From NCBI GenBank assembly GCA_964474445.1, contig CAYYSJ010000004.1, positions 185 through 64,184 of the forward strand: a stretch of DNA of 64,000 bases, written 5' to 3'. The notes under the pieces are model-generated. The model ran no database searches. It was not told the DNA's origin and saw only the letters and a list, made by a program, of their open reading frames with translations. A program made the translations under genes and the position numbers. The stretch's first letter is position 1. Every line of letters begins with the position of its first letter. Below are positions 38,111-57,075 of the stretch, piece after piece. The DNA is from an uncultured Gammaproteobacteria bacterium (GTDB lineage: Bacteria; Patescibacteriota; Microgenomatia; Levybacterales; UBA12049).

Positions 38111-40183
38111 CTATTTCCCAGGAGTTGGGGAAGGGGAAACCAATGGTAGCTGTTGCTTCTGTGGGGGAATAGTTGCCTGAGGAGCTGGTAGAGATAATTG
38201 TTGTTGCGTTTGCGTTGGTACTACTTTTGTTGGGGTAGCTCCTGAATTCTGGTTACCAGCTTTTGCCTGTAAATCATCTATTTCGCTTTGTACTTTAGCA
38301 CCATTTGTTTTATCAGATCCAATAAGTTGTTTCACAACTTGGAGTGCTGCTAATGCATTTTGATAATCCTGTTTTTGCAAATAGGAGTGTGCTATGTTGT
38401 AATATGCATTTGCATAATCTTGCTTTAGGTTAGCTGCAATTTGAAACTGGCGTATTGCATTATCATATTGTCCAAGCTGGTAATAGAGTCCTCCTAATGT
38501 TAAGTATTCCTGCGGATTCGTTGGGTCAAGAGCCACTGCTTGTTGGGTTGCAGCAATTGCAAAATTATCTGCATTTTGTCCAATACCAATAAGAGTTCTG
38601 TAGACAGATGCCAAATTCTGCCATTCAATTGATGATGCAGGAGAAAGAGTCGTTGCTGTCTTGCCAGCAGCGATTGCTTGCTGAATAAGGGTAAATGCTG
38701 TTTGTTGTGACTGAGCACTTGGGGAAGCTCCATTTCTTGTATTCAAAAGTAATAGAGAGTTAGCAAGTGCTATATTAGTTTGTGAAAAGATACGATAGTA
38801 TCCACTTCGATACGGAAAAGTAGTAATAGCTTGTGTCTCTAGTCTGTAAGCTACCGTCCCACTATTATTACTCGCTGAAACGAGCGCTTTTTGGAAAGTA
38901 AAATCTGACATAACAAAGGTCGTTGTATAAAATCCTGAAAAGACAACTATTGCTAAGAGGAAGACAAAAGCAAAAAGAGGTGTGATATTATTTTTCGATC
39001 GTTCTCCCTCACTTGGTGTTGAAAAACTAAATATACCTTTTTTCAATGTAACAAATTGAAATTCAACTTCAAAAAAACGTGTGTTATCATGTCGTACCTG
39101 AACCAAAGTAAAGACAGCTAACAAGAGAAACAGAAGTGTTACTATGGTGTAGGAAAAAGGCATTAAGAAGGAAATGGTCATTAAAAGAAGAAGCGCAATA
39201 TATGCAGGATTTTTAGTTTTGGATCCTTTGTATGATACTAATTTCACAATAAGGAAAATGTAGGAAAGGATGCCCACAATTCCTGTTGTTGCCAAAAGCT
39301 CAAGGAAAAAACTGGAAGATGTTCCAAAGGTAATATACCAAAGGGGATTTGCATTGAAGGAGATTGGCTTAAATCTGGTAAAAACTTCTACATAATTGCC
39401 AAATCCTGATCCAAAAAAGAATCCTTGCGCAACTCGTCCAGCATCTTGGGAAATTGCTGCAAATGCTGTCTGAAACCCTACTTCAAATGGCAAAAGGTTT
39501 GGCTTTTGGGAGGTAAATAGGAGATACACTGCTTCCAATAACCCAAGGAGGATAATCCCACCAAGTCCTGCAAACAATACCCCTTGAGTCGTTTGTCTCT
39601 TTTTTAATAAAGGAATAGAAAGTGTTGCCGCTATTATAAATAGTACAGCGAGATAGAGTGCCTGATCCAGATATGTCCCAAAAGGAGTGAATGTTGCAGA
39701 ATGTGTTGAGCTGAATGGCAGTAAATACACTTTATAATGATTAGCAAGACTTACAAGTCCTGCTAAGGCTCCACCACTTAACAGAGAAATAAGCAAAAAT
39801 CCAAGGCTGTTTTCTCGTCTTGAGGTGTTGTTAATAACAAAAAAGCCAAGGATGAGATATAGGTAGGGTACCGTTGCAATAAGGCTGTTGACCTTATCTA
39901 TTGCAAAAACAGAAGAAAGGAGTAATGCTACTCCGAAAAGCAGAACTGGAATATCAAATGGGGTACGACGGATTCGTACTTGACCATCTAGGAGCATTTT
40001 TACTCCCCATAACAAAAGAGATAATAGTACTACTCCTCCCAAAAGTATTTGCTTAGGTAAGACAATACCATCTGTTGTTAATGGAGTAAAGAATAGAGGG
40101 AACAGGAATAGGGAAATTCCCCAGATAAAAAGTAGTCCAGTTTCAAGATAGGTACTAAATTTTTGGCGAGTTTCAGCATTCAT
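38111..40183 (-). CDS. O-antigen ligase/polymerase (Wzy_C)-like membrane protein with C-terminal TPR repeats
   Basis: ~12 TM helices in N-terminal 400 aa typical of O-antigen ligase family, then TPR-like 'AIAATQQAVALDPTNPQEYLTLGGLYYQLGQYDNAIRQFQIAANLKQDYANAYYNIAHSYLQKQDYQNALAAL'. Confidence 0.7.
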   Translation of the reverse strand: MNAETRQKFSTYLETGLLFIWGISLFLFPLFFTPLTTDGIVLPKQILLGGVVLLSLLLWGVKMLLDGQVRIRRTPFDIPVLLFGVALLLSSVFAIDKVNSLIATVPYLYLILGFFVINNTSRRENSLGFLLISLLSGGALAGLVSLANHYKVYLLPFSSTHSATFTPFGTYLDQALYLAVLFIIAATLSIPLLKKRQTTQGVLFAGLGGIILLGLLEAVYLLFTSQKPNLLPFEVGFQTAFAAISQDAGRVAQGFFFGSGFGNYVEVFTRFKPISFNANPLWYITFGTSSSFFLELLATTGIVGILSYIFLIVKLVSYKGSKTKNPAYIALLLLMTISFLMPFSYTIVTLLFLLLAVFTLVQVRHDNTRFFEVEFQFVTLKKGIFSFSTPSEGERSKNNITPLFAFVFLLAIVVFSGFYTTTFVMSDFTFQKALVSASNNSGTVAYRLETQAITTFPYRSGYYRIFSQTNIALANSLLLLNTRNGASPSAQSQQTAFTLIQQAIAAGKTATTLSPASSIEWQNLASVYRTLIGIGQNADNFAIAATQQAVALDPTNPQEYLTLGGLYYQLGQYDNAIRQFQIAANLKQDYANAYYNIAHSYLQKQDYQNALAALQVVKQLIGSDKTNGAKVQSEIDDLQAKAGNQNSGATPTKVVPTQTQQQLSLPAPQATIPPQKQQLPLVSPSPTPGK

Positions 40184-40343
40184 AGGCAGTATTCATTCAC
40201 TGTAACAATTAGAAAAGCATAATGTCAAGGATAAAATTAGCTACAGGTTTAACTGTAGTACCAGGCAGTTTTTGCCTTTGGTATGAGTCTTCGCTCATGT
40301 TATTGGGTAATCTTTCCAAGCTGTATCTGCCTTTCAAGCATAA

Positions 40344-40715
40344 TCAATTTTGTCTAGAATAGCCTTGGTAGAAGTTTTGTATGTTTTCTTTTTGTGAGTC
40401 ACTCAGATATGAATCAGAAAGCGCTTCAAGTGCTACCAGAACAGATAGTCCTTGAAATCCAAAGAGTATATAAACACCATAATACAAAAGATCCGTTCCC
40501 CACGCATTTGGAATCAATGTATATCCTTTCATTGTATAGGTATACGAATCAACAGAAGGAAGTGCATGATGCCGCCAGATATGTTTTCCAGTACTAAGAT
40601 GATGGAAGACATCTCCTTCTGTTCCAATAGGATGGAGGAAATACAGAAAAATACCAACGAAGTACAAGATAAAAAGGGTAAGGAAGGCAATCTTTCTGCT
40701 AGAGAAAAGCTTCAT
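40344..40715 (-). CDS. Small hypothetical membrane protein
   Basis: Two to three hydrophobic helices; no motif. Confidence 0.35.
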   Translation of the reverse strand: MKLFSSRKIAFLTLFILYFVGIFLYFLHPIGTEGDVFHHLSTGKHIWRHHALPSVDSYTYTMKGYTLIPNAWGTDLLYYGVYILFGFQGLSVLVALEALSDSYLSDSQKENIQNFYQGYSRQN

Positions 40716-40762: not shown

Positions 40763-43700
40763 TTAGTTGATAATAAGCCAGTTAAAGGTGGTATCAATAT
40801 ATTGTTGGACTGGGATGCCCACTGTAAAGGACTTCCCACCAACTTGTCGAAGAAGATATGGTGTATAGGTCGTCTGGCCAACAGGCGTAATATAGATAAG
40901 AGACTTATCTGTCACCAATGGGTCATCAATAGTGACTTCCGTCTGGTGTGCTTTAATAGCTGCAGTACCAGCAGAGCCAGTTGCAACTACTTCTTTATCA
41001 CTCATTGCCAGAGCTGGTTGTACTGCATTGAAGTTAAGCTTTGCGATATTTGCTGCTCCAGATGCGATGACATTTCCAAGCTGGTCTATGTTGAAGATAC
41101 CAGAACCAGATGCATTCTGAACATTAAGAGTACTGGTTGCAAGAGCTGAGGCAGATGCTGAATTATCTCCAAGTCTTAAAGTGAGGTCTTTGTTATTAGC
41201 TAGTGGGGTAATAACATCTGCAGCCAAATTCTTTGCAAAGACTGCATTTCCTCCAACAGTTAAGTTACCATTGGTATCAATTGCGACAAGTCCTCCTTCA
41301 AAGACAACGTTTCCTTGTGCAAGACTTTGGATTTGGAATGTTCCACCTAAGACATTGACGGAATTGGCAGCGAGTATCAGTTGTGTTCCAATTGCCAATT
41401 GTCCCGTCACTGTCGTATCGGCAAGGGAAGTGGTACCAGTTGAGACAAGTCCCTGACCAAAGGTTGCCGTTGCTGCAGAGAGGTTTGGCACATATGCTAA
41501 GAAGCCAGAATACGAGGCTATGTTGGCATATCCTATCTGAGGACTTAGCAATCCTGAATTCGTGCTGCTAATAGAACTAGAGCCTATAACTGTATTCATC
41601 GGAGTAACGTTAGCAGATGGTGTGGCAAAGTAAATATTGGTGATATTTGTGATGTTTTGAGCAGATAATGTACCCACAGTTGCTTGAAGTCCAACAATGC
41701 TGTTAGCCTCAATTCTATTGGCGTGAAGTGTGCCAGAGACCGTAGCATCGCCATTTACTGCAAGATTTTGTGAGTTTAATTTTCCAGAAAATGTTGCATT
41801 ACCTGAATTATCGAAGCTAGCCACGGTTTGCTGTGAAATGGAATTCTTCACGCTTAGCCTGGAGTTTTCCAGGTTAAAAGCGATAGCTGAGGTAGACGCA
41901 AGTGGAGAAATAAGATTGGTGTGAATCTGGTCGACTTGACCAATGGGGGAGAGTGTTCCGTTTCCCCGTCCAGCCAGAACATCATTTACAATACCGGCAA
42001 CATAGTCATGTAGACTTTGTCCAGCAATAGAGACATTGTTGGTTGTAACAGCCAGACTCCCTGTAAGAACTTGTTGTGCTTGAACAGATCCTGCTCGAAG
42101 ATTCCCAACAACCAGCTCTAAGAAAGCACCCATTCGTGATACCGGATTGCCTAACACATCATTTAAGCTGTAATAGTGAGGAATAGTAAAGTCTGCAGAT
42201 GGAGAGGCATCAGTAATCTGCAGATCTCCAGTTGTAGCAAGGTAGACTTGTGGATCATACCAAGTTGATGTAGCATAAACATAGACTTGTCCACAAATTA
42301 CATTTGCTGGAGTTCCTGCAGGACAGGAGACAATCCCAACTTCTCCTGGTTCTCCATTTGAAGGGTCAAAGTTTTGCATTGCTTTCCCAACAATAAATCC
42401 TGCTTGAGTTGCTTTCATCCCATATCCTGCGATATTACTTGATGTAATAGCATCACCAGTTTTAATTGGGCCATTAATGGTAGAAACATAAACGGGTGCA
42501 CGACCAGCCAAATCAATTGGAGGACGATTGCTAGGAGTAATAGTAGAATTCTTACTTACAGTGACATGGTTTTCTTCAATAATAAGTGCTGGATGAGTTG
42601 AAGCAACACCTAATATTGCATGAGAGTAGGCTGTAGTAGTTTTTTGTACTAGTTTGCCGTTCGTAGATTCAGTTGTCCGTTGTGCTGCAGAAACGGATGC
42701 ATCGTAGTTTGTAATATCTATACCATTCCATGTCTTATCTGGTGAAGTTTCCACAATTTCACCAGGAGTGATAATTTGGTTCGACTTGTAAATTTCTGCG
42801 TAGTCAAAACTATGCCCAGAACCATCTAGGAAAACTGTTCCACCTCTCCAATTGATAAAAACGGGAGCAATACTCGTACAAATATTTACTCCCTGTAAAT
42901 ATCCACCACCATTGCTATTATCAGCGCCCATGTATAAGGTGTAGTTACCACAACCTCCACCATTTGCATCAATTTCAACACCATTATTTGCATGTTCATT
43001 GTTATTCCTATTACCAGTGTTATGATTATTAATATCTACCCAGTCTGCAGTGCTGTCATTCCCTATATTTACTTGGCTATCATTTCTAACACCAAAAACA
43101 TAACCATTGTTTCTATTATAGAGTCCAAAAACAGTGCCTCCTAAGCCTCCTACACCTGGTCCTAATGCCCACACATGGTCATTGCCGTTTGTTGAGGTTG
43201 GATTGCTTCCCACAGCTGTTGCTCCACTAATAAAAGCAATACTCGCTTCACTATTACTGCCTGTATCTGCAACTTGGAATACCCCCCATGGAGATGTCGT
43301 ATTCACAACAACAGTTTTTTGATCTGCTCCATTACCATTAATATATACCTGTTGTGTTGGATTAGTTGTTCCAATACCTACGTTGCCAGAACTATTGATC
43401 CATAAGGCATTATCATGGAAGGACTCGCTGTAGGTATTCGCATTCAACGATGTAGGTAGAACAGCAAACAGATTTTGCCATGCATCGCTACCACTTGCAG
43501 TATTATGGTAAAGGAAATTCCAGTTTGCATTTGCGCTTTCATTTGTTCCTCTTTCGTTGAAAAAATATCTGTTTAGATCTAGCTCATCACCAAAGATAAC
43601 TTGGTTGACACTCCAATTACCATTTCTATTTCCTCGTAATTCTAAGGTGGGAGCTCCAGAAGATTGGTATAATTGCAATTGATAGTTGGGATTCGCAGTC

Positions 43701-46700
43701 CCTATCCCTACTTGCCCATTAATAAGTGCCATTGTTGAACTTCCTGCTCCTCCATTGGTGTTGAACAATAGGTGTTGACTTGTTCCCTGTACTCTTAAGA
43801 CTAAATCATTTGCAATTGTATCGGTTGAATATTGACCACCTGAAGTTGCTAGTCCAAGTAGTCCTTCTACTGTGCCAGAGTTGTCTATAGCTATTCTTGG
43901 TGCATTTGTTCCGTTGAGGGTGATACCGGTGGCTACAGTCGTTGTATTTATATATAAGCTGTCAGTTGGATTCGTTGTCCCTATACCAACATTTCCTGCA
44001 ACGACAAGAGATGTTCCGGATGCTGCTGGATCTAAGAAGTAATTGGTGTTCTGTAAATCTTTAAATGAGGATGCTGTGATAACACCAGTATTACTTAATA
44101 TAAACTGTGTTGCTCCAGATGCTGAAGCTGTCATGATATCTCCTGCACCAGGCTGGTTAACCGTGATTGCTGCATTAACTCCTGTTGTATCTATGTTAAG
44201 AATAGTATTCCCAGATGCATTCTGAAATTGCATTGCAGTTGGGGAGTTGACAAGGGAGCGGGAGAGAAGATTACCATTACTATCAACTCGGAATGCGTCA
44301 GCAAATCGAGCAGAAGAGGTTGCTCCAAAAGCAAGATTATCAAGTCTTGTTGAGAGTTGATTTGTCACTCGAAGGACAGAGTCAATATTCACATTAGACT
44401 GGGTAAGATTTGTGCCAAATGGATTGTAGGACGATGCAAGAACTTCTTTGAGAAGGGTATCTTGTGTTTCCATCCACGTGTTTCCTGATCCTGCATTATT
44501 GGATCCGATAATAAGTCCTATGCCATTGCCATAGGATTGGCCAGCAGCAATACTTTGAACAAAATTATTATTGACACTTGTACTCCATGCTGTACCAACA
44601 TCGTCTTTAGTATTGATAGAAGTTGAATATAAGTCGGTTACTGTATCTGAATCAAGCCCAATAACAGAAACACCCCCGCCTTGAGTGCCGACATAAAGCT
44701 GACCGTTCTGCATATTTGCAGCAACTGCTGAAACATTGGAGTTTCCGTTTGCCAATTTCTGATTTGAGTCTGCTCCTGTTACAACTCCTCTGATTGTTTT
44801 ACTGGTATGATTTTGTAAAGCATGATATCCAACTTGATACATATGGATAATTGCTGAAGGAGTAAGAGCACTTGCTTTCACAAATGGTCCATCGATAGAG
44901 CCAGTAAACTTAGTTGATCCATCTCCGCCTGCCCCAATGCCGAAATTAGCTGTCCCAACTACAATAGAGCCTGAGGTTGTGAGCGAGCCAGCTAGGATAC
45001 CATCCCGATAGAGTTTGAAGGTTGTTCCGTCGTATGTTACCACAGCAAAATGCCAGTTATTATCATTGGACGTTTGAGTATCATCAATAATTCTTGTGCC
45101 TCCATTATTGATGGCTGCTCTCAGTTTACCAGCAGCAAGATCACCAATAGACAAAAGGTATGCAGGGGTTATTGAAGAGCCATCCCATTTAGTGACAATC
45201 CTTCCAGTGTTACCACTTGTTTTGTACCATGCTCCGTAAGACCAGGTCGTACCTCCAGAGTCAAGCTTAGATGCCCCTCCACAAGCAGCATTAGTACAAG
45301 ACAAATAAGCGGTTGACCCGTCAAACGTTAACGCTGTCCCCCTCACACCTGATGCAGAATAGGTAACCGATCCATTTGCCGTAAGGGTGATGCCTTTGAC
45401 TGATGCATCGTTGATATTTCCTGATGTTTCGTTGAATGGCCACATCCCACGTGTATCTCCCACCATATCATCAGTAATATAGTTACTGTTGTAGTACTTT
45501 ACAGAAGCGTTGGTTGGATCTCCTTTCTTGAGCTGGAAAGCCATAACAGATCCATTACTACCTTGAGCTCCAAGATAGACAGTATCAGAGATGCCATCGA
45601 CGATTGATGTACCTTCTGTCACAACCATAGAAGTTGGAACAAAGGTTGCGGATGTACTTGCAGGCCCGGCAGTCAAGGAAAGGGAAGAGAAAGTATTATT
45701 ATCTGTTGTTGTTGCACCATAATTTGTTGTTCCACCCTGATTAGCATAAACCTCATCAAAAAGAGTGTTATTGCCAGAACCATTCTGTGCGTTGTACTTA
45801 ATCTTTAAAGCATAGTTAGAAGCAGTCGATGAATTACCAACAGTGGCATATAATGTTCCTCTTGAGGTAAGCCAGACATTTTGAGCATTAGCATTTGGAC
45901 CGAAGTTGGCAACAAGGCTCAGTAGTGACTCATTAATAAGCGTAACAGCTCCATTAGTGCCACCGGCCGTTGCAAGGACAATATACGTTTGACCATTTAT
46001 CACGTTCACTGCCACATCATTGATGGTTGCATTTGGTGTATTGAGATAGATATTAGGCATCAAAGTGTAGGTTGTTGTGCTATTTCTTCCTGAGATGTTG
46101 GTATTTGAATTCACAAAGTATTGTCCAGCATTACTGGAAGATAGGATCTTATAAGAAGTATCATGCTTGAAATCAATAACGTAGAAGCCTCCTACTGAGC
46201 CATTATTCCCAAAGTAAATTTCTCCATTAAGAGCGGCAATACTGGAGCCAGTAGAATTAGTGGTTGGACCAATCATTTGCTCGGTTGCTCCAGAGCCTTT
46301 GTTAAATGCCATCCATAAAGAATTATCTTTTGCATCAAAAATATATAAATTAGTTGTGGTGACGACGAGGATTGCTTTTCGTGGGAAAGCCTGCTGGCCA
46401 CATCTGGTATTTGTCCCAATAACACAGGTATCAGCTGTGGTTCGAGACTCGTTGTACCAAGAAGATGCGGGAGCCTTGTCATCATTTGTCCAACGACCAC
46501 CATCTGAGTCTTTTGAGGTATCATAGAAAAGAACTTTTTGGATATTTGAAATACTTTGGAGATTTTTGTGCCCACCAATAGTGAGGTCTCGATTATCAAG
46601 AGTCATGTATGAATGATCTGATGAGGCAACATTAATAACCTTGCTCGCAGCAGGGAGAACTCCTGCATTGTTATTAACTTTTGGATCATTTGGTGTAATC

Positions 46701-49700
46701 GCAACAGTTCCAATATTGACGCCTGATCCAAATACCTGGAAATGAGCAGAGGCAGTTGAATTACCCCCTATTACTAAGTCATTGTTTGTGTTTGAAGGAG
46801 CAAGTACGCCACCATTGGAAAGTTGCCAGAATCCAGCAATACCGCCATTGGCAGGAGTGACAATTTGTCTGACATAAAGAGTATTCCACTCTTTACCGCC
46901 TTGTGTTGGATCAGAGCCTAAATTATAGGTATCTGTTACATTTGGAATAAGACTATTTTTAATAGTACCGTCATTAGCAATGGTAAAAAGAGGAGTTCCG
47001 GATGTAGATGCAGTAAAGACGTCTCCTAGCCCAGATTGATTAACAACAAAGGTCGCATTGCCAAGAGAGTTCTTTGAAATAGTAAGCCCACTTGAAGCAA
47101 GGGGGGATGTTGTCCCTATTCCAACACTACCACCGTTATTGATGTATAAGCGACTAGCATTATTTAGTACATCATAAATATTAAAGTAGTCAGCAGTTGT
47201 ATTTGGGTCATACACTTCAAGTTTAAATCCACGGAACTGATTGTTTTGTGGGGATATACGTATTGACCCATAATTATCTGTTACTGGTCTTTGTCCGATT
47301 ACAAGGTTATCAAAATTAGGATCAATAGTACTGGCTGTTGCTGATATTATCGCTTGCCCTCGAACATCAAATTTTGCACCAGGGGCGTTTGTCCCAATGC
47401 CAATATTACTGCTTGCTGCAAGGAAGAGAGATGGAGTGGAAAGTGTTATTCCTTTATCTCCACCAACTGAATTATAGAAGGCAAGAGTACCGCCATTAAG
47501 GGAGTTAACTGCAGTTGCAGAGCCTCTAAAGGTTATATTTCCTGATGTACTTGCTGTTCCAGCTGGAACTGTTCCTAAGTCATTTGTATAGGAATTGCTA
47601 AAGATTTGGAACTTTGCAGAAGAAGTAGACGTCCCACCAATTGCTAGGTCATCGGTAATAGTAAATGGTGAAACAACCTGATTAAACCTCTGCCAGAGAC
47701 CATCATAAGTCCCAGATATAAAAAGATTTGTGATGTAGGCTGAGCCAAAGTTGTTTGTTGCTGAGCCTAAGTTAATAGTTGCAGCGGTTGGAATAATACT
47801 ATTTGAGAATTGGCCATTTGGGAAAATAGTATTTGTACCTGATGAGCCAAGGATGAGATTTCCTCTAAAGGTATTTGTTCCATTTGCATTTCCCAGATTT
47901 ATTCCATTTGTTGCCCCTCCACCGATATTAAGAGTAGTTGCTGTAGTATCAAAGAGCCCAACTGTGCCTTGAGTTGTTTTAATATTTGCACCACCTAATG
48001 TGAGGTCCCCATTGTTATTCAACTGAAGCTGAGTTGTGAGGCCACTATCACCACCCACTGAAGTTTGAACTTTCAAGATACTACCGTTTAATAAGTTAAC
48101 ATTAGTCATTGCTCCTCTAAAGGAAAGTCCTCCGGATGAGGTGGCTGTGCCTGCTGTGTTGATTCCTTGGGTGGTGGCAAACACTTGCCAAGGAGTGGCA
48201 GAGCCTGTTGCGTTACCACCGACTGCTAAGTCATTCCATGCGTTGACGGGGGAGAGGACGTTACTTGTTAATTGCCAGAACCCTGATGTTCCACCGCCAA
48301 CTGGTGCAATGAAGTTATTTGCATAGACAGTTCCCCAATAGTGAGTTGGATCACCAAGGTTAATCGTTGTTGATGAAGGTAAAACATTCTGGTTAACCAG
48401 GCCGTTGATGGTTACTGTGTTGCTTGTATTTGTTCCTAGAGTAGTATTCCCATTCACAGACAAAGCTCCTTGCACTGTTGTTGTTCCGCTTACATTGCCA
48501 ATATTGAGTGTTGTTGCTGCTCCACCAAAGGTGATTGAGGTTGGAGTACCAAAGAGTGTGAGTGTTGAACGATTATCATCAATAGTTGGTGTTCTAAAGG
48601 TTGTCGTTCCCGTTGTTGCACCAATCGTGAGTGTTGATGCAGAACCTGCAAAGGTAAGATTAGATGGAGTCCCAAGTAGAGTAAATACACTTGTTGTTGT
48701 ATCAAGAGTTGGTCCATTGACTATGACATTGCCAGTAGCATTATGAGGAGTAAGAGTAATATCACCTGTTGTGCTCCCGCCAACTGTAAGGTTTGCAAAG
48801 TTCGCTGTCTGAATGGTTCCATTTGCTGTTATATAGGTAGAATTTCCGTTCAATCCGCTTGAAACAGATGCAGTTGGTGTTCCAGATCCTATCATGTTCA
48901 GGACAGCAAATTTTGCGGAATTGGTTGCGCTGCCACCAACAAACAAATCAACTGTGCTATTAACCGGATAAATTGCACCGTTAATAGTATCAAGCGTCCA
49001 CCAGCTTCCATTTGTTCCAGTACCGCAACTTCCCCAAGTAGGATTTGCTCCACCAATAAGACATTGGTTCGTTCCTCCTGTTGGTGTTTGTTTAAACAGT
49101 CCAGTAGTATCTGCGTAAAGAACACCACCATTATTGGTATAATTTGTAGATAAAATAGCCCCAGAGTTTTGGAGTCTGAATTTGGTTGTACCAGAAGATG
49201 AGGCCGTTAATAAATCGCCAGCAGAATTCAAAACATTAATAATTACCCCTGCATTTCCTAACGTATTCTTTTCTATATCTAAAGCAGTTGCAGTAAAAGG
49301 TGCAGCTCCAATCCCAAGTGTTCCAGTAATTTGTGATGCCCCAGCACCATTGACATTAAGTGTCCCAGCAATTTGTGATGTTCCCGTACCGTTGACAGTA
49401 AGTACTCCTGCAATGGTGAGAGCACCAGCATTGGTAATCTTATTTGAAGAACTGAAAAATTGGATGTCTCCTCCTGTTGTATTTGTGCCAAGCGTGATTG
49501 TTCCTGTTCCGGCTAAGATAGCAAGAGTATTATTGCTTGTTGTCGTAATTGTTGGATTCGTACCGGTAAGAGCAACCGTTGCAGCAGCAAGGCTGACTGT
49601 TCCTAACCCATTATTTGGTGAAAGGGTAATACCACCAGTTGTATTACCTCCAATGGTAAGTGGCAAACTATTCGTTGTTTGGACACTGCCTGTAGTGTTA

Positions 49701-52327
49701 AAAGTGAGGGTACCTGCACTTGTTGCATTTCCCGTAGTGGCAAAGATTTGAAATCGAGCAGTGTTTGTTGCTGTTCCACCGATTGCCAGATCGTCAGTGA
49801 TATTGGTAGGAGCAAGTACTCCGAGTGTTCTTTGCCAAAAACCAGATATATTTCCACCGGAAATAATGTTTTTCACATAGAGATTATTCCATTCGATAGA
49901 GGATGTTCCCAGATTATATGTATCTGTTGCCCCTGGGATAATATTTCCGTTGACTGTCACGCTGCCTGATCCATTATTCGGAGATACTATAATATTACCT
50001 GTTGAGTTTCCACCAAGGGTGAGTGGTTGATTTTTTGTTGTTTGGATAATACCTGCACTATTGAGCGTTAGGTTTCCAGCAATAGAAGCGGTTGGAGTTC
50101 CAGAGCCAGGTGTGTTATTTAAGAAAGCAAAATTAGCAGAGGAAGTAGATGTTCCCCCTAAAAAGACATCTAGAGTGGAGTTAAGAGGGTAGAGTGAGCC
50201 ATTTGAAAGAGTCCAAAAGTTTGAAGCTGCACAAGGACTCCAAGTTGGTGCTGTTCCTCCGTTGGAGGTAAGACATTGTCCTATGCTTCCTGCTGCTGTC
50301 TGCAGGAAGAGTCCTGTTGCGTCAGTATAAATAACTCCTCCTGCTGTTGTGTAGTTGGCTGATGATATAAAGCCTGTGTTGCCAACAGTAAATTTAGAAA
50401 CCCCACTACTTGACGCGCTAATAAGTGGCCCTGTTCCGGTTTGATTAATAGTGACTGCAGATGCAGCACTTGTTGCCAAAACAGCAAATAAGCTATCGAC
50501 CTCAACAGCGTGAGGTGCTGAAGGGAAATTACCATTGAAGGTAGTATTTTGGAGTGGTTTTTGTACGTCTATAATACCTGATCCATCTGGAGCGAGAGTA
50601 ATATTACCATTTGTTCCAGAGTTGGTATTGAGAGCGAGAGTATTGCCAGCAAGAGTAAATTGTCCACTGGTTGACTGAAATGTTGTAGATGCTCCAATAC
50701 TTAAGTTTCCAGAAGAATTGAGGGCTAAGATAACATTCGTTGTACCTGCTCCTGATTGGGTGATAGGGGGCATCCCTTGGAGTGTTTCTGAGTTGGTTGC
50801 ATAAGCAACTGTTGCCAATTGTTGACGGGGCGTTAATTCTGGTGTTGATCCAACAGTGATACCCAAATACAAGTTCTGATTGTTAGCAAACAATGATTGT
50901 GGAATTGTTGTGCCTCTTCCTAAGAGTATGGAAAAAACACCATTATTGTCAGGAGTAACACCATTTACTTCTTGCCAAAGCAATGCTGAGGCTGAGGACG
51001 AAGGGTCGGAATAAATCGCAAATCGCAAGTTGGTACTTGCGGTAATGGGAGAATTTTGACTATCTGTCAGTCGTCCTTGGAAGGACATGATTCTGGGCGG
51101 TGCTGTTGCTGCCAATGTTGGAGCTTCTTTTGGTTTGGCAATAAAACTATTATAGAGACCAAATCCAATGGCGGTACAAAAGACAATAAGAATTGCCCAG
51201 TTAAAGTAATGAGCTAAAGCATATGTGTGATACTTTCTGTACCAGTTAGGGCGGGTGTAGCGAACATGGTGCCATGCCTTTCTATACCAAGGGAAATGCT
51301 GTATAGATATTGCTTGAGGAGCATAGAAAGTCTTTGGGAGATTATGAGTCTGAAGCAATGGGTTATGAGCAATATTTGCAATTTGAGATTTAAGATTTGA
51401 AATTCCCTTAACATTCGTAAAAAGAGGTTTGCCTTGTATCTTCCACAGCTGTTTATGAATTAAAAGAACTCCTTTGGTGATTGGTATAATCATAACTGTC
51501 TCAAGAAGAAAATCTATTCCTCTTTCCATTTTTTGCATAAGTCGTAGAGGAGGGAAGGAAGAGTACTTCTTAACGATTAAAGGATTGTTGTCTTTTGATC
51601 CATTTTGACTAGTATTTATACTATTTTCTAGCAGAGGCTCCGGGTTACTGCTATTAAGAACTGGCGTTTCATTTAGGTTGCCAGGAATTGCTATCTGTGA
51701 AGAAAGGTATCCTTGCGTATTTGCCCAGGCAAGATATTTACGAAGAGAAGAAAGTTTTCGGTTAATTGAGGTGGCAGAAAAGGCTCCTGTTTCGAGAAGT
51801 CTCAACTTGTACTCTTCCAGAAGAGGGTAAGAAATATAATGAAAAACATTTTTCTCATCTACGCCTGCAGCTTCTTTTATCCTTGAAGTTTCTTCAACCC
51901 ATCTCAAGAACTGTTTCACATCAATGATATAGTTTTTTATAGTAAGACGACTTGCGTTATAGACATATAAAAAATCTTTAAATTCTTTTATTCTCCAGGG
52001 ATCTTGGTGAACTTGTGCTACTCGAGAGACAACTTCATCAAAAGGAGACTGGGCAATAACTCCTTGCATTTTTAGTGCGTGAAAAAACTTATGAAGTGAA
52101 GAAATATGCCTTTCGATTGATCTCACGGAATACATAGAAGATTTTTGAGCTTTAAATTGATTAATAACAGCAAGTGTTACTTCATTAGGTTGAAATGGTT
52201 TGGCAAGTTGTGCTTCGCACCAGGAGATAAAGTGTTTTACATCTACGATGTAATTCTTCACTGTTGAGTGTGATGGGGTTGGTTTTTGTAAAAGTAAGAA
52301 ATTTTTAAAATTTTGAATAAATTCCAT
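40763..52327 (-). CDS. Giant (3854 aa) surface protein: two cytoplasmic tyrosine-recombinase core-binding (SAM-like) domains + TM + repeat-rich extracellular region + conserved C-terminal module
   Basis: Uninterrupted 11.5-kb ORF. Residues ~1-210: tandem 'S..TVKNYIVDVKHFISW…SIERHISSLHKFFHALKMQGVIAQSPF' / 'LTIKNYIIDVKQFLRW…SINRKLSSLRKYLAWANTQGYL' (Phage_integrase N-terminal SAM-like pattern). TM 'YALAHYFNWAILIVFCTAIGFGLY' at ~aa 375. Then Gly/Thr/Asn/Ser-rich beta repeats incl. recurring 'TDTYNLGS…W..LY……GFWQ' motif (x4). C-terminal 'DYAEIY…PGEIVETS…LGVASTHP…IDLAGRAPVYVSTINGPIKTGDAITSSNIAGYGMKA' shared with 19472-22705. Confidence 0.85.
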   Translation of the reverse strand: MEFIQNFKNFLLLQKPTPSHSTVKNYIVDVKHFISWCEAQLAKPFQPNEVTLAVINQFKAQKSSMYSVRSIERHISSLHKFFHALKMQGVIAQSPFDEVVSRVAQVHQDPWRIKEFKDFLYVYNASRLTIKNYIIDVKQFLRWVEETSRIKEAAGVDEKNVFHYISYPLLEEYKLRLLETGAFSATSINRKLSSLRKYLAWANTQGYLSSQIAIPGNLNETPVLNSSNPEPLLENSINTSQNGSKDNNPLIVKKYSSFPPLRLMQKMERGIDFLLETVMIIPITKGVLLIHKQLWKIQGKPLFTNVKGISNLKSQIANIAHNPLLQTHNLPKTFYAPQAISIQHFPWYRKAWHHVRYTRPNWYRKYHTYALAHYFNWAILIVFCTAIGFGLYNSFIAKPKEAPTLAATAPPRIMSFQGRLTDSQNSPITASTNLRFAIYSDPSSSASALLWQEVNGVTPDNNGVFSILLGRGTTIPQSLFANNQNLYLGITVGSTPELTPRQQLATVAYATNSETLQGMPPITQSGAGTTNVILALNSSGNLSIGASTTFQSTSGQFTLAGNTLALNTNSGTNGNITLAPDGSGIIDVQKPLQNTTFNGNFPSAPHAVEVDSLFAVLATSAASAVTINQTGTGPLISASSSGVSKFTVGNTGFISSANYTTAGGVIYTDATGLFLQTAAGSIGQCLTSNGGTAPTWSPCAASNFWTLSNGSLYPLNSTLDVFLGGTSTSSANFAFLNNTPGSGTPTASIAGNLTLNSAGIIQTTKNQPLTLGGNSTGNIIVSPNNGSGSVTVNGNIIPGATDTYNLGTSSIEWNNLYVKNIISGGNISGFWQRTLGVLAPTNITDDLAIGGTATNTARFQIFATTGNATSAGTLTFNTTGSVQTTNSLPLTIGGNTTGGITLSPNNGLGTVSLAAATVALTGTNPTITTTSNNTLAILAGTGTITLGTNTTGGDIQFFSSSNKITNAGALTIAGVLTVNGTGTSQIAGTLNVNGAGASQITGTLGIGAAPFTATALDIEKNTLGNAGVIINVLNSAGDLLTASSSGTTKFRLQNSGAILSTNYTNNGGVLYADTTGLFKQTPTGGTNQCLIGGANPTWGSCGTGTNGSWWTLDTINGAIYPVNSTVDLFVGGSATNSAKFAVLNMIGSGTPTASVSSGLNGNSTYITANGTIQTANFANLTVGGSTTGDITLTPHNATGNVIVNGPTLDTTTSVFTLLGTPSNLTFAGSASTLTIGATTGTTTFRTPTIDDNRSTLTLFGTPTSITFGGAATTLNIGNVSGTTTVQGALSVNGNTTLGTNTSNTVTINGLVNQNVLPSSTTINLGDPTHYWGTVYANNFIAPVGGGTSGFWQLTSNVLSPVNAWNDLAVGGNATGSATPWQVFATTQGINTAGTATSSGGLSFRGAMTNVNLLNGSILKVQTSVGGDSGLTTQLQLNNNGDLTLGGANIKTTQGTVGLFDTTATTLNIGGGATNGINLGNANGTNTFRGNLILGSSGTNTIFPNGQFSNSIIPTAATINLGSATNNFGSAYITNLFISGTYDGLWQRFNQVVSPFTITDDLAIGGTSTSSAKFQIFSNSYTNDLGTVPAGTASTSGNITFRGSATAVNSLNGGTLAFYNSVGGDKGITLSTPSLFLAASSNIGIGTNAPGAKFDVRGQAIISATASTIDPNFDNLVIGQRPVTDNYGSIRISPQNNQFRGFKLEVYDPNTTADYFNIYDVLNNASRLYINNGGSVGIGTTSPLASSGLTISKNSLGNATFVVNQSGLGDVFTASTSGTPLFTIANDGTIKNSLIPNVTDTYNLGSDPTQGGKEWNTLYVRQIVTPANGGIAGFWQLSNGGVLAPSNTNNDLVIGGNSTASAHFQVFGSGVNIGTVAITPNDPKVNNNAGVLPAASKVINVASSDHSYMTLDNRDLTIGGHKNLQSISNIQKVLFYDTSKDSDGGRWTNDDKAPASSWYNESRTTADTCVIGTNTRCGQQAFPRKAILVVTTTNLYIFDAKDNSLWMAFNKGSGATEQMIGPTTNSTGSSIAALNGEIYFGNNGSVGGFYVIDFKHDTSYKILSSSNAGQYFVNSNTNISGRNSTTTYTLMPNIYLNTPNATINDVAVNVINGQTYIVLATAGGTNGAVTLINESLLSLVANFGPNANAQNVWLTSRGTLYATVGNSSTASNYALKIKYNAQNGSGNNTLFDEVYANQGGTTNYGATTTDNNTFSSLSLTAGPASTSATFVPTSMVVTEGTSIVDGISDTVYLGAQGSNGSVMAFQLKKGDPTNASVKYYNSNYITDDMVGDTRGMWPFNETSGNINDASVKGITLTANGSVTYSASGVRGTALTFDGSTAYLSCTNAACGGASKLDSGGTTWSYGAWYKTSGNTGRIVTKWDGSSITPAYLLSIGDLAAGKLRAAINNGGTRIIDDTQTSNDNNWHFAVVTYDGTTFKLYRDGILAGSLTTSGSIVVGTANFGIGAGGDGSTKFTGSIDGPFVKASALTPSAIIHMYQVGYHALQNHTSKTIRGVVTGADSNQKLANGNSNVSAVAANMQNGQLYVGTQGGGVSVIGLDSDTVTDLYSTSINTKDDVGTAWSTSVNNNFVQSIAAGQSYGNGIGLIIGSNNAGSGNTWMETQDTLLKEVLASSYNPFGTNLTQSNVNIDSVLRVTNQLSTRLDNLAFGATSSARFADAFRVDSNGNLLSRSLVNSPTAMQFQNASGNTILNIDTTGVNAAITVNQPGAGDIMTASASGATQFILSNTGVITASSFKDLQNTNYFLDPAASGTSLVVAGNVGIGTTNPTDSLYINTTTVATGITLNGTNAPRIAIDNSGTVEGLLGLATSGGQYSTDTIANDLVLRVQGTSQHLLFNTNGGAGSSTMALINGQVGIGTANPNYQLQLYQSSGAPTLELRGNRNGNWSVNQVIFGDELDLNRYFFNERGTNESANANWNFLYHNTASGSDAWQNLFAVLPTSLNANTYSESFHDNALWINSSGNVGIGTTNPTQQVYINGNGADQKTVVVNTTSPWGVFQVADTGSNSEASIAFISGATAVGSNPTSTNGNDHVWALGPGVGGLGGTVFGLYNRNNGYVFGVRNDSQVNIGNDSTADWVDINNHNTGNRNNNEHANNGVEIDANGGGCGNYTLYMGADNSNGGGYLQGVNICTSIAPVFINWRGGTVFLDGSGHSFDYAEIYKSNQIITPGEIVETSPDKTWNGIDITNYDASVSAAQRTTESTNGKLVQKTTTAYSHAILGVASTHPALIIEENHVTVSKNSTITPSNRPPIDLAGRAPVYVSTINGPIKTGDAITSSNIAGYGMKATQAGFIVGKAMQNFDPSNGEPGEVGIVSCPAGTPANVICGQVYVYATSTWYDPQVYLATTGDLQITDASPSADFTIPHYYSLNDVLGNPVSRMGAFLELVVGNLRAGSVQAQQVLTGSLAVTTNNVSIAGQSLHDYVAGIVNDVLAGRGNGTLSPIGQVDQIHTNLISPLASTSAIAFNLENSRLSVKNSISQQTVASFDNSGNATFSGKLNSQNLAVNGDATVSGTLHANRIEANSIVGLQATVGTLSAQNITNITNIYFATPSANVTPMNTVIGSSSISSTNSGLLSPQIGYANIASYSGFLAYVPNLSAATATFGQGLVSTGTTSLADTTVTGQLAIGTQLILAANSVNVLGGTFQIQSLAQGNVVFEGGLVAIDTNGNLTVGGNAVFAKNLAADVITPLANNKDLTLRLGDNSASASALATSTLNVQNASGSGIFNIDQLGNVIASGAANIAKLNFNAVQPALAMSDKEVVATGSAGTAAIKAHQTEVTIDDPLVTDKSLIYITPVGQTTYTPYLLRQVGGKSFTVGIPVQQYIDTTFNWLIIN

Positions 52328-52862
52328 AGGGCAGTTGTTTATCTATCAATCGATGGTTGTGAAATGGTGGTGAAAATGCTTCTAGCTTCGAAATTATACG
52401 GATTATACTCATTATCAACCAAACAATCACTACTACTATTAGATTAGAAAGTATACAGTATCTTGTCAATAACCTGGAGTAATATTAAATTGATCTAGTA
52501 TGATCTATTAAATAGGTCATGAAATTTAATTTTCATGAATTTATGAAAAGAATTTTCTATAAAATAATTCGAAAATATTGTGTTCAAGAGGCTAATCTTT
52601 CTAGAGAACGCTCCTGTTAGTTATTTATGGTGAAAAATAAAACAGGAAAATATTCGACTTATTTTCTTATGAAAATTGCCCTTTTTCACGAAAATTAACT
52701 TATACAGGCTCAATTGGCAGCAATTGCCTTTGAGTGATAGGCTCAAGATAGGGCACCTTTAGATTATTCTAGTAATCTAAAAATAAATTTAAGAGAAAAA
52801 GTGACTTTTGTGTCTCACTCTTGTAGTATTTCTGCTAAACTTTTACTATAGATAATAGGTAT

Positions 52863-53747
52863 ATGAAAAAGTATTTTGTTGTCCTGCTTTTGCTTGTCCT
52901 ATTTTTAGGAGTATCACCCCAAAATATATCTGCTGATACATCCTCTGGTAGTGGACAAGTAATTGTTAAGGTGAGTATCAATGGGTTTACTTTCAGCCTT
53001 TCAGGTTATCTTGCTCCATATGCTTCTATAACGCTTACCAGCAATGGGAATGTTTTTGCTTCGACAACTGCGGATGCTCAGGGAAACTTTTCCTTCCCTT
53101 CAGTCAAAGTTGCAAAAGGATTCTCTCTGTTTTGCCTTGATGGTATTGACTACAAGAGGCTTGGAGAATCTGAAGCATGTTTTACGATTCCTCCAGTCAT
53201 AGGCCCATTCAGTAAATCAGCAATTTTCTTACCTCCAACACTTGGCGTTTTTCGTAGTGATGTAACTATCGGGGATAATGCTCTTGTCTTTGGATATGGT
53301 ATGCCAAATGCGCTTATCAGCATTAAGTTAGACAATAGGGTCATTTGTGAGAAAACAGCCGACTCAGGAGGATATTATGAGTGTAATTTTGCAATTAGGA
53401 AAGAAGGAAATCATGAGGTGTATGCAGATTCACGCTTGAATGGTAAAGCTTCTGAACCTCAGCTTAAGCGAGTTATTATTAAAGGAGTATCTCTAACAAA
53501 AGTGACTCCTACTCCGTCTCTGGGCAACATTATTGATATTCTCCATGGGTTACCAGGTATCTTGATTGCCCTCTTTATTGGTCTTTTGCTTATTATCCTC
53601 CTGATTATTCTCCTCAGACGTCGTAACCCCTCATGGTTACCTCGAGTATTTCTTCCAAAACCTGGAGACCTTATCCATCATGGGTGGGATAGTTTTTTTA
53701 GAGAAAGGAAGCTGCACCACTGGTGGATGAAAGGAGTAGGGTACTAG
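52863..53747 (+). CDS. Surface protein with Ig-like (carboxypeptidase-regulatory/Big-like) domains and C-terminal TM anchor
   Basis: Signal peptide; 'ASITLTSNGNVFASTTADAQGNFSF', 'ALISIKLDNRVICEKTADSGGYYE' beta-sandwich repeats; TM 'ILIALFIGLLLIILLIILL' + RRRNP. Confidence 0.6.
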   Translation: MKKYFVVLLLLVLFLGVSPQNISADTSSGSGQVIVKVSINGFTFSLSGYLAPYASITLTSNGNVFASTTADAQGNFSFPSVKVAKGFSLFCLDGIDYKRLGESEACFTIPPVIGPFSKSAIFLPPTLGVFRSDVTIGDNALVFGYGMPNALISIKLDNRVICEKTADSGGYYECNFAIRKEGNHEVYADSRLNGKASEPQLKRVIIKGVSLTKVTPTPSLGNIIDILHGLPGILIALFIGLLLIILLIILLRRRNPSWLPRVFLPKPGDLIHHGWDSFFRERKLHHWWMKGVGY

Positions 53748-54450: not shown

Positions 54451-55437
54451 TTATTCTGCAGACTGTTTCATACGTCTTTGCACACGAGTAAAAAGGAATA
54501 TGCCAACAGTAAGAAGCAAGATTATTCCAATCATGTATTGAATCGGTAAGGCAAAAAAATAGATTGTCCGGTGAAATAACGGCCCTTGTGGCGAAAGTGA
54601 GACAGTGAGTGTTGCTGTGTAAGGTCCGAAAAGAAATGTTTCAGGCCATACAGCTTTATTCTCCAGGAATTGGTGCGTGTCTTGAAGGCTCCGCGAGGAG
54701 TTAGAAAGGATATTTTGTTGCAGTAGGTCGACCTTTCCTATCAGTTGACCATAGAGATTGCGAATAAGTATCTGGCCTTGGGGTGCAATGTAGTAGGAAC
54801 TAAGATTGTGGACAATAACAGTGAAAGGAATTGGACCATTGGTCACATAGAAAGGAGCACCAAACTTTTCAATAAAGCCACGTGCTGTATCTTTAGGCCC
54901 TATCGAGAGAAGAACATTACTGGCAATGCCTCCGGCAATTGCTGAGCCTGTTGTACTTGTTTTAGCTGTTTTTGAGAGAAAGACAATTGAAAAGTAATAA
55001 TCAGCAGGTGGTTCATCTTTTGGAAGACCAACCTTAAGAGTAAGGGCTTTTTCTTCCTGGGGATCAAGAGTAACCTCATTCACGGCTGTATCACCATCAA
55101 GTACCTGAATTTTTTGAAAGATATCCTTATCTCTTAAGATAAAGTCTTTTTCGTCTACAAATCCCACATGTCCAAGGCTATCCTTAGCAGTAAAAGGGCG
55201 AAGAGTGATAGAAAGAGTTACTGGCGTATCAGCCCTATTTGTAATCGTAACAGGGTGTTTAATTGCAGTTGGGGGAGTCGCGTCAACTTGGATAATAGGA
55301 GGAAAGACACCCAAAGAGAGAGTTTCAGCGTGAGCAAAAGAGGTAAGAGGAATGAAATAGAAAATCAGTAACAGGAAAGATGCTGTGGATATAAACAGGT
55401 CGCTTCTTTTACTCATAAGTTTTAACTTCTTATTCAT
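54451..55437 (-). CDS. Membrane-anchored Ig-fold surface protein, DUF916/DUF3324 (CscA)-like (third paralog)
   Basis: Signal peptide, 'LSLGVFPPIIQVDATPPTAIKHPVTITNRADTPVTLSITLRPFTAKD', C-terminal TM 'YMIGIILLLTVGIFLF' + TRVQRRMK. Confidence 0.6.
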   Translation of the reverse strand: MNKKLKLMSKRSDLFISTASFLLLIFYFIPLTSFAHAETLSLGVFPPIIQVDATPPTAIKHPVTITNRADTPVTLSITLRPFTAKDSLGHVGFVDEKDFILRDKDIFQKIQVLDGDTAVNEVTLDPQEEKALTLKVGLPKDEPPADYYFSIVFLSKTAKTSTTGSAIAGGIASNVLLSIGPKDTARGFIEKFGAPFYVTNGPIPFTVIVHNLSSYYIAPQGQILIRNLYGQLIGKVDLLQQNILSNSSRSLQDTHQFLENKAVWPETFLFGPYTATLTVSLSPQGPLFHRTIYFFALPIQYMIGIILLLTVGIFLFTRVQRRMKQSAE

Positions 55438-55441
55438 AAAT

Positions 55442-56215: not shown

Positions 56216-56232
56216 AGCATTTGTATAGCTGA

Positions 56233-56868: not shown

Positions 56869-57075
56869 ATAGTGATAGTAGTGGATTTTGGAGACAGAGA
56901 CAAGAGTAAAGAACTGAGATGAGGTCAAGATTCAATAGATCAGAAAAACAGAACCGTTTTTGTAAAAGGAGACTCACGATTTTTTAAAAGTAAACCTCTT
57001 TTCGCCCTTTAGTTGCGATAAGTCCTATAATTCAAAAATTATTTTCCCATAGTAATTATGAGAAATGAGGCTATC

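Follow-up and report, generated by a model that had tools for sequence, protein, structure and literature searches.

The gene at 40763..52327 (minus strand) of the stretch of DNA analysed here, hereafter the window (64,000 nt; contig CAYYSJ010000004.1, positions 185-64,184 forward, GCA_964474445.1), encodes a 3854-aa type-II (N-in, C-out) membrane-anchored surface fibre, whose cytoplasmic part is a duplicated Xer-type recombinase core-binding (CB) domain that has lost the catalytic domain. The architecture of two CB domains, a transmembrane (TM) helix and a giant fibre can be regarded as nearly certain, and the topology, with a cytoplasmic N-terminal domain, one TM segment and an extracytoplasmic part, derives from hydropathy, charge and the structure model. 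That the CB tail of this N-in anchored fibre binds DNA at the membrane, possibly at its own leader, is put forward as a plausible proposal, rated a little below an even chance.

Profile matches and the structure model confirm a core-binding (SAM-like) N-terminal domain in tandem, as the first-pass annotation had proposed. All parts of the gene being given on the minus strand, CB domain 1 (aa 1-100, 52028..52327) is a four-helix bundle, followed by CB domain 2 (aa 108-212, 51692..52006). Among NCBIfam profiles both are closest to XerC/XerD, the Xer models being matched only at positions ~3-108 of ~290, with 60-70 bits relative to cutoffs of 220-335. The catalytic domain PF00589, with its RKHRH pentad and Tyr nucleophile, gave no match at E<=1 with the whole protein, aa 1-420 or aa 213-400, in agreement with the earlier claim that no such domain is present. 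A degenerate catalytic domain in aa 213-400 was also discarded, this segment giving no Pfam or NCBIfam signal and being modelled as helices and disorder without beta-sheet. With the catalytic domain lost, the protein cannot recombine DNA.

The CB domains of Cre, lambda Int and XerD contact DNA through their helices B and D. Across 21-31 homologues (33-52% identity), little or no variation is seen in the polar and basic residues with which helix B begins (T-[VI]-K-N-Y), or in those on helix D (S..R..S.L[RH]K and N-R-K-L-S-S-L-R). Family-invariant positions are T22, K24, N25, Y26, D29, F33, W36, S70, R73, S76, L78 and F81 in CB domain 1, and T129, K131, N132, Y133, D136, F140, W143, N189, R190, K191, L192, S193, S194, R196 and Y198 in CB domain 2. 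Since these helix B and D residues are (nearly) invariant despite such low overall identity, the CB module is under selection. A PDB sequence search with the whole protein gave no match. The best PDB profile match, to a chain labelled RaiA in a P. gingivalis ribosome (9i5v), was set aside; only 34 residues of it are modelled, a portion lying in the tRNA-binding site like Hpf, and it thus provides no evidence for ribosome binding by the CB domain.

A disordered linker (aa 213-255, 51563..51691; pLDDT <50), whose length differs among aligned homologues, leads to a conserved basic juxtamembrane module (aa 256-374, 51206..51562; net charge +13) with a long, partly hydrophobic helix at aa 259-297 and the motifs S-x-FPP-x-RL-x-QK and RPxWYxxYH. 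This module matches no Pfam family, and a homology search with it alone gave no match within the reach allowed by a word-index search. No N-terminal signal peptide is present; an internal signal anchor, the single TM helix (aa 375-397, 51137..51205), follows the 374-aa cytoplasmic region. The anatomy originally read from the letters is correct, including the linker, the single TM helix and a giant ectodomain rich in Gly, Thr and Asn. What had been missed is the resemblance of the ectodomain to phage tail fibres, with a putative MAT-type N-domain and a putative G2/S74-type C-module.

In its build the extracellular part resembles a phage tail fibre or tailspike: a putative MAT-type N-domain directly outside the membrane, a variable repeat and LamG middle, and a conserved C-module of putative G2/S74 (intramolecular-chaperone) type. 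The first extracellular domain (aa 405-475, 50903..51115) is confidently modelled as a beta domain resembling the Bdellovibrio MAT N-terminus, and aligns with positions 8-78 of the 162 of NF053851 (Bdello_MAT_N) at E 2.6e-7, although its score of 30.6 bits falls short of the curated cutoff (60). Gly/Thr/Asn-rich fibre repeats follow (aa 476-1900, 46628..50902), with four copies of the module W..LY...GFWQ...DL.IGG and five of SASxSG; self-BLAST returned no high-scoring pairs indicative of long internal repeats, recurring motifs being short only. A Laminin_G_3 / ConA-like lectin domain (aa 2357-2493, 44849..45259) sits inside a non-repetitive region (aa ~1900-2700). The conserved C-terminal module (aa ~3238-3854, 40766..42616), recognised by homology to family members, is common to members of 1434 and 3903 aa. 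Its homologues match the Peptidase_G2 / Peptidase_S74 chaperone, with PF11962 in P0063, P0080, P0125 and P0168 and PF13884 in P0108, P0175 and P0181 among family members and C-module homologues; direct domain searches gave no S74 or G2 match in the window protein itself. Foldseek related the C-module to phage tailspikes and to the phi29 gp12 C-terminus, from a monomer model of low confidence (pLDDT 55). Because of its build like a tail fibre, the protein is probably trimeric, as judged from homology only. As a further observation absent from the first-pass annotation, family members share a chassis of conserved N- and C-termini around a variable middle.

The N-terminal module is common to at least 200 clusters (50% identity) of proteins of 1300-6048 aa, and at least 200 representatives match at E<=1e-30, so that the architecture belongs to a large family rather than to a one-off protein. 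A scan of genome contigs returned one locus with a single-sequence query, an alignment query being expected to reach further. Named relatives come from Levybacteria, Roizmanbacteria and 'Patescibacteria group', all Patescibacteria, and are labelled 'site-specific integrase' at NCBI (e.g. MCL6096364.1, MBI3985061.1). The earlier suggestion that the protein is undescribed stands in that no publication on a CB-CB / TM / fibre protein was found in the literature searched, and falls in that sequences were already deposited under that label.

The label itself, together with genuine CB domains, would favour a true site-specific integrase or tyrosine recombinase, or a part of a mobile element or prophage tail fibre, but this reading has practically no probability left: the RKHRH-Y catalytic domain is absent, which refutes an integrase; Xer models are matched over their first ~100 positions only; and the synteny of the locus with LeuRS holds over many genomes. 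Moreover, neither relatives nor the leader motif described below were found in 2.9 M viral contigs, on which grounds a phage origin was rejected, and the window protein has no match in PHROGs. Thus, the 'site-specific integrase' label is a misannotation. Just as negligible is an assembly or sequencing artefact in which a frameshift joins a small CB gene to a fibre gene. The frame of one syntenic locus (L001) is indeed broken just past the TM helix into ORFs of 415 and 1544 aa, but the contig of that locus is full of broken genes, an independent assembly (L002) is uninterrupted over >3833 aa, and dozens of representatives from NCBI, JGI, ENA and Logan (1300-6048 aa) extend from residue 1 across the TM helix to the fibre; a CB, juxtamembrane and TM unit by itself would also be left without an ectodomain. 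Like the window gene, a syntenic orthologue at 64% identity is uninterrupted, and the fusion is real.

Upstream of the gene lies a 32-nt leader element conserved across loci, ATAATGA-GTATAATCC-GTATAATTT-CGAAGCT (52384..52415, minus strand), whose end (52384) is 56 nt before the ATG (first base 52327). It contains three ATAAT-type direct repeats, (G/A)(T/A)ATAAT, with 9-bp spacing, carries two perfect TATAAT hexamers and is single-copy in the 64-kb window, a relaxed pattern included. Lying beyond the gene coordinates, this repeat had escaped the initial reading. The element is identical or nearly so in all six syntenic loci, whereas the proteins are only 35-64% identical. In metagenomes 42 exact matches were found; of the 38 that could be assessed, 36 precede a co-directional CB-CB family gene by 3-531 nt; divergent family members keep variant triple repeats. 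Conservation extends beyond the hexamers to ATAA-N3, a G before each hexamer, CC between them and YTYGARGCT after them. An Rfam gathering scan of the window returned rRNA, 5S and tRNAs only, with no known RNA in the leader, and RNAalifold predicted 0 pairs over 35 leaders. Conservation is thus at the level of primary sequence and a structured-RNA reading was dropped, while a single-stranded RNA site is compatible with the RNAalifold result.

A promoter-like block, also conserved across loci, consists of TACTCCAGG..TTGACA and then TAATCT / TCTAATAGTAG (52441..52478, minus strand), with the -35-like hexamer TTGACA at 52464-52469. The promoter scan did not call it, its -10 being weak, so that the promoter assignment is based on conservation only. 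In a divergent subgroup the leader is directly downstream of a canonical TTGACA-N18-TATAGT promoter. One locus (L031) shows the same synteny, promoter and leader before a CB-less gene of TM and LamG type, indicating that the element can do without a CB domain from the gene it precedes. The ATAAT core resembles ...CATAA / TTATG..., with which the inner arms of Xer-bound dif sites end, a similarity taken as a lead only.

DNA binding by the CB module, deduced by analogy from CB-domain identity, appears evenly poised. The tandem module would read double-stranded DNA via helices B and D, which would place a sequence-specific DNA-binding unit at the inner membrane face, at the foot of each fibre. 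The conserved leader repeat provides this idea with a concrete candidate target, and the own leader as the site bound by the CB domains is considered fairly unlikely. Such binding would allow feedback control of the 11.5-kb gene, and could hold the locus at the membrane during insertion of the nascent chain. In a bolder and rather improbable version, the CB module at the foot of a host-contact fibre would bind the triple-repeat leader of its own gene as a direct surface-to-DNA wire; binding might occur in cis, with the nascent chain still attached to the transcribed locus, and would couple fibre production, and possibly host engagement, to transcription and membrane tethering of the locus. Against the own leader as target, (i) its two perfect TATAAT hexamers mean that it could be a sigma-70-dependent pause, an antiterminator-loading site or a real -10, (ii) there is no simple correspondence between three repeats and two CB domains, or six if the fibre is trimeric, and (iii) at L031 the element precedes a CB-less gene. 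Several models are compatible with the 9-bp spacing and with distances to promoter and ATG that vary.

The main rival, although itself unlikely, is that the CB module was exapted as a protein-protein module, as the first reading had also envisaged, and binds no DNA, with the leader an unrelated cis element; the fibre base would then dock to some cytoplasmic partner, for example one involved in the cytoskeleton, division, secretion or glycosylation, or fibres would be clustered. Less probable again is a CB module whose DNA binding serves to tether the nucleoid, or a site on the chromosome such as a dif-like sequence, in a structural role, as the first reading had proposed. The leader would then be a transcription element, either for sigma-70-dependent promoter-proximal pausing or antiterminator loading, so that 11.5 kb can be transcribed in a cell that has Rho, or simply as the -10. 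Such a tether agrees with the closeness of the CB domains to XerC/XerD, and the transcriptional role with the two consensus TATAAT hexamers, the position right after a canonical promoter in the divergent subgroup, a distance to the ATG as variable as that of ops-type elements, the Rho encoded in the window (31999-33324) and the leader kept before a different long surface-protein gene at L031. On the contrary, conservation reaching well past the hexamers and the lack of the leader at any other gene within the 64-kb window argue against it. Regarding the preferred reading, a membrane-anchored fibre with a DNA-binding CB tail, the earlier notion that it might tether a plasmid lacks support, because the locus is conserved and chromosomal.

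When compared with known systems, two sequential CB domains are also found in the RitA subgroup of tyrosine recombinases (PMC8138268). Unlike XerC/XerD and RitA, the window protein has no catalytic domain and allows no recombination, is membrane-anchored and joined to a ~3450-aa ectodomain, and bears T-[VI]-K-N-Y and N-R-K-L-S-S-L-R as fibre-family-specific signatures. Structural neighbours of the CB model include MrpR/YopR, SroF, FliZ and the plant ALOG domain, recombinase-derived folds without catalysis that are kept for sequence-specific DNA binding. Among them, SPbeta MrpR/YopR has lost catalysis and binds a repeated element (PMC10516654), and phi3T SroF is a DNA-binding regulator (bioRxiv 10.1101/2025.11.27.690993); as repressors on repeated operators, MrpR and SroF offer an analogy for the proposed CB-leader binding. 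All four are small and soluble, and MrpR and SroF retain a degenerate catalytic-domain fold, whereas the window protein, with neither the full YR fold nor solubility, has CB domains only, duplicated and tethered to a membrane fibre, with putative DNA binding and a repeated candidate operator. The topology of ToxR/TcpP/CadC, with an N-terminal cytoplasmic DNA-binding module, a single TM and an extracytoplasmic domain, is the same, and the predicted control through the leader is likened to that of such membrane-tethered regulators; however, they use an OmpR-type winged helix, in place of which a CB fold with putative DNA binding stands here, and sensor domains of ~100-250 aa versus a 3450-aa fibre. 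Bdellovibrio mosaic adhesive trimer (MAT) fibres, and phage tail fibres or tailspikes that carry G2/S74 intramolecular chaperones, are close counterparts of the ectodomain (PMC10769870). The present family resembles them in a cell-proximal N-domain, putatively of MAT type (in the window protein below the NF053851 cutoff), in long Gly/Thr/Asn-rich repeats, in a middle and tip that can be swapped, and in C-modules of G2/S74 type, seen here in family members. MAT fibres differ in having a cleaved signal peptide and binding an outer-surface element of a Gram-negative predator; the fibre family, which occurs in Patescibacteria, keeps its signal anchor uncleaved behind a cytoplasmic domain of 374 aa.

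A tandem CB tail in the cytoplasm represents a use of a recombinase domain without earlier description in the literature searched, and its combination with a gene-specific leader repeat makes a directly testable hypothesis of fibre control. An attached life on host cells is assumed for CPR/Patescibacteria and, to our knowledge, almost nothing is known about their attachment machinery and its regulation. With at least 200 clusters, kept beside LeuRS and reaching 6048 aa, the family makes a strong candidate for a host-contact fibre present throughout the lineage. If true, the direct link from surface to DNA would establish, for CPR episymbionts specifically, a new class of regulator that derives from a recombinase and is tethered to the membrane. 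In addition, the 'site-specific integrase' naming inflates mobile-element marker counts in CPR genomes.

The fibre gene is chromosomal, in a conserved Patescibacteria locus by LeuRS. Cumulative GC skew rises monotonically across the window, which therefore holds no replication terminus. A divergent syntenic neighbour (52863..53747, plus strand) encodes a Big_6 / CarboxypepD_reg-like protein bearing a signal peptide as well as a hydrophobic segment at its C-terminus, and three syntenic small envelope proteins (54451..56928, minus strand) of 328 aa (weak WxLIP_PGBD-like match), 257 aa and 231 aa (5-TM) are encoded between the fibre locus and LeuRS. Downstream, two co-oriented genes (38111..40715, minus strand) encode a 123-aa membrane protein and a 690-aa protein with 11 TM segments and TPR repeats, a pair that is syntenic in four of the loci (L001, L020, L035 and L043).

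The fibre gene is a single unbroken ORF of 3854 aa (40763-52327 (-)), and its product almost certainly joins two core-binding (CB) domains of the XerC/D type, one transmembrane (TM) helix and a fibre ectodomain. The tandem CB N-terminus proposed in the first-pass annotation is borne out in detail by Pfam, NCBIfam and Foldseek: Phage_int_SAM_1 matches twice, at aa ~3-100 and 113-205 (E 1.8e-19), with SAM_4 and SAM_5 in agreement; the XerC, XerD, XerA and XerS models match across their first ~100 positions only, far under cutoffs; and structural comparison leads to the same assignment. The two copies share 29% identity with each other (E 2e-13), and therefore arose by internal duplication. The defining catalytic domain of an integrase was looked for and was absent at E<=1 both from the whole protein and from aa 213-400 scanned separately, so that identity as an integrase is rejected.

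Past the CB domains, a disordered linker of variable length (aa 213-255) leads into a conserved juxtamembrane module (aa 256-374) to which no Pfam family matched. Its helix at aa 259-297 is long and in part hydrophobic, and two of its motifs, S-x-FPP-x-RL-x-QK and RPxWYxxYH, are strongly conserved. Considering that (i) this module is very basic (net +13), (ii) aa 375-397 form the sole strong hydrophobic segment of the protein, (iii) an N-terminal signal peptide is absent, and (iv) the 3457 residues after the TM helix are acidic (net -54) and rich in G, T, S and N (with Cys in close pairs), an N-in/C-out signal-anchor topology is predicted.

The alternative named in the same annotation, an N-terminal part that is a separate gene joined by frameshift, fails: the orthologue in L002, a locus from an independent assembly, is 64% identical, shares an identical gene order and keeps its ORF open beyond 3833 aa, many relatives are full-length, and the sole broken example, L001, belongs to a contig on which many genes are fragmented. 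When aa 1-400 were searched with HMMER against all 1.84 billion representatives, at least 200 proteins scored E<=1e-30, many of them with lengths of 1300-6048 aa and with alignments that run from residue 1 to ~400. Two full-length NCBI relatives, MCL6096364.1 (3901 aa) and MBI3985061.1 (3903 aa), are both named 'site-specific integrase', and all named relatives are Patescibacteria (Levybacteria, Roizmanbacteria, Gottesmanbacteria, 'Patescibacteria group'). No relatives turned up in the viral contigs searched, and a PHROG search gave no matches. The fibre gene is neither an artefact, nor mobile, nor rare.

The 23S rRNA gene (1-3184 (+)) spreads model positions 1001-2925 over 3184 nt, and thus contains ~1.26 kb of insertions, one of them enclosing a LAGLIDADG homing endonuclease ORF (1014-1547 (+), E 3.8e-22); a 5S gene lies at 3290-3404. 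rRNA genes with such insertions are typical of the candidate phyla radiation (CPR). This aspect, together with a window GC content of ~40% and the affiliation of all named relatives, indicates a CPR genome. The title of L002 (CAZRBN010000002.1), the closest orthologous contig, reads 'uncultured Gammaproteobacteria bacterium', but the contig agrees in gene content and synteny with the Patescibacteria lineage of the window; its bin is probably mislabelled.

Immediately past the TM helix, the stretch aa 405-475 shows a match to the domain found at the N-terminus of Bdellovibrio mosaic adhesive trimer (MAT) fibres (NF053851, E 2.6e-7, under cutoff) and is modelled as a confident beta domain; in Bdellovibrio this domain is thought to be cell-surface-proximal (PMC10769870). 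Short recurring fibre motifs follow, and then a non-repetitive region with a Laminin_G_3 domain (aa 2357-2493). The C-module, formed by the last ~620 residues, is 35-48% identical to the C-termini of 1434-aa and 3903-aa family members; short members show a Peptidase_G2 intramolecular-chaperone match just ahead of it, and other members and C-module homologues display Peptidase_S74 ('chaperone of endosialidase') or collagen repeats. Its monomer model is poor (pLDDT 55), and its best Foldseek matches, with weak E-values from this low-confidence query and hence taken as corroboration only, are nearly all phage tailspikes or fibres (K64-1 depolymerase, Pam1 tailspike, phi29 gp12 C-terminal fragment, Sf6 tailspike, R2 pyocin fibre). 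We conclude that the ectodomain is phage-tail-fibre-like, its N- and C-terminal chassis being conserved and its middle exchangeable, and the fibre is probably trimeric. A second fibre-like protein of 1077 aa (19472-22705 (+)) combines one TM helix, preceded by a short basic N-terminus, with a MAT-type N-domain like that of the fibre gene (INFQGKI...LWSE...NGIFQVALG). It has neither CB domains nor the leader repeat, so that within this genome only one class of fibre has the CB tail.

Six syntenic loci encode proteins with only 35-64% identity, yet their aligned upstream regions share an invariant block, ATAA-N3-GTATAA(T/A)-CC-GTATAAT-YTYG-NR-GCT. In the window it appears as a 32-nt leader element with a triple 9-bp direct repeat, ATAATGA GTATAATCC GTATAATTT CGAAGCT (52384-52415 (-)), beyond the gene coordinates of the first-pass annotation and the only such site within the 64 kb even with relaxed patterns, and each fetched locus contains exactly one. 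Scanning a metagenome collection with the exact pattern (20 specified bases) yielded 42 loci, four of them cut too early to assess; a CB-CB family gene begins 3-531 nt downstream on the same strand in 36 of the 38 assessable matches, which makes the element nearly exclusive to this gene family in the metagenomes. The match in L009 lies in an unrelated context and is probably due to chance. In L031 (Ga0182027_10001177, motif 1320-1344 (-)) the synteny (5-TM, 257-aa-like, 328-aa-like and Big_6 genes), promoter and element are all kept, yet the product of the gene downstream is a TM-anchored LamG-type protein that lacks CB domains; the locus represents either a naturally CB-less form or a case where the gene behind the conserved leader was replaced. 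No copy of the element was detected in the viral contigs searched.

Divergent family members retain recognisable variants, such as GTATAATCC-AAATAATCA-GTATAATTT, GGATAATAC-GTATAATCG-GTATAATTT and, in a Roizmanbacteria collagen-type member, GTATAATCT-TTATAATCT, which define the element as three direct repeats spaced by 9 bp. Upstream of the element, at a distance of 50-70 nt, a TACTCTAGG..TTGACA block is conserved (promoter-like block at 52441-52478 (-) in the window), and one divergent subgroup has a canonical TTGACA-N18-TATAGT promoter immediately ahead of the element, which therefore sits in the early transcribed region. RNAalifold found no consensus RNA structure in the leaders. In L048 (6001-6040; Roizmanbacteria, family representative P0040, collagen-repeat variant) the first codons of the annotated gene (MQKGYNLYNLEP...) overlap the repeat GTATAATCTTTATAATCTTGAGCC: the start codon has been mis-called, or else the element can be part of a coding sequence.

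CB domains of Cre, lambda Int and XerD touch DNA via helices B and D. On the modelled helices B and D of the fibre protein lie invariant polar or basic residues of CB 1 (T22, K24, N25, S70, R73, R/H79-K80) and CB 2 (T129, K131, N132, N189, R190, K191, R196), which argues for a CB tail that would retain DNA binding. The net positive charge of both domains points the same way, as does the precedent of recombinase-derived DNA-binding regulators without catalysis, namely MrpR, which binds a repeated element (PMC10516654), SroF (10.1101/2025.11.27.690993), ALOG and Ndc10, all of them among the structural neighbours of the CB model. RitA recombinases provide natural tandem CB domains (PMC8138268). 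MRG-type relatives of the CB fold bind protein, however, and the chance that the module still binds DNA appears about even.

The candidate target of the CB tail would be the gene-specific triple repeat in its own leader, an assignment that we consider doubtful. A resemblance of the ATAAT core to CATAA / TTATG, the ends of the inner arms that Xer proteins bind at dif, is a lead only. Against this target, the element of L031 stands without a cis-encoded CB domain, and three repeats fit poorly with two CB domains, or with six per trimer. Alternatively, as two perfect TATAAT hexamers lie within it, the repeat might serve in sigma-dependent pausing or antitermination, or be the true -10.

On its outer side the fibre protein resembles MAT or phage-type fibres, and on its inner side possibly ToxR-type and MrpR-type regulators; ToxR has a membrane-tethered DNA-binding domain ahead of a single TM helix, a topology shared here with putative DNA binding by the CB domains. 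Nonetheless, for each of these families there are defining features that it lacks. A literature search found no paper in which CB domains are described from surface fibres or from giant CPR proteins. What is new is the domain architecture, which defines a sizeable CPR family; the sequences themselves were already public, under wrong names. Were surface-to-DNA coupling true, it would offer a credible path to something categorically new.

Synteny around the fibre gene is kept over dozens of contigs, in the order LeuRS, 5-TM protein, two small secreted or anchored proteins (one weakly WxLIP_PGBD-like), opposite-strand Big_6 protein, fibre gene, small membrane protein, and 11-TM + TPR protein. The gene of the latter (38111-40183 (-)) lies immediately downstream of the fibre gene and keeps synteny with it; further genes nearby encode a 9-TM 1126-aa protein (25686-29066 (-)) and two GT2 glycosyltransferases (24756-25559 and 29068-29970, both (-)). 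This looks like an envelope glycosylation neighbourhood, which could modify the Ser/Thr/Asn-rich fibre. The multi-pass proteins received no family assignment. Small four-helix-bundle genes of 23S_rRNA_IVP / bAvd type occur beside or within the leader region in several loci (L003 at 6783-7196; L013 and L017 between the motif and the contig or locus end), and the motif-to-ATG distance reaches 260-530 nt in L008, L029 and L046. These genes may mark an inserted element or else hint at a connection with diversity-generating retroelements; no reverse transcriptase was detected.

Outside the family, PDB 9i5v chain 14 (P. gingivalis ribosome), a 401-aa protein deposited as 'RaiA' with only 34 residues modelled and described at the Hpf position in the tRNA-binding site, aligns to the CB profile over its first ~100 residues (E 1.6e-8), which suggests a Xer-like N-terminus.
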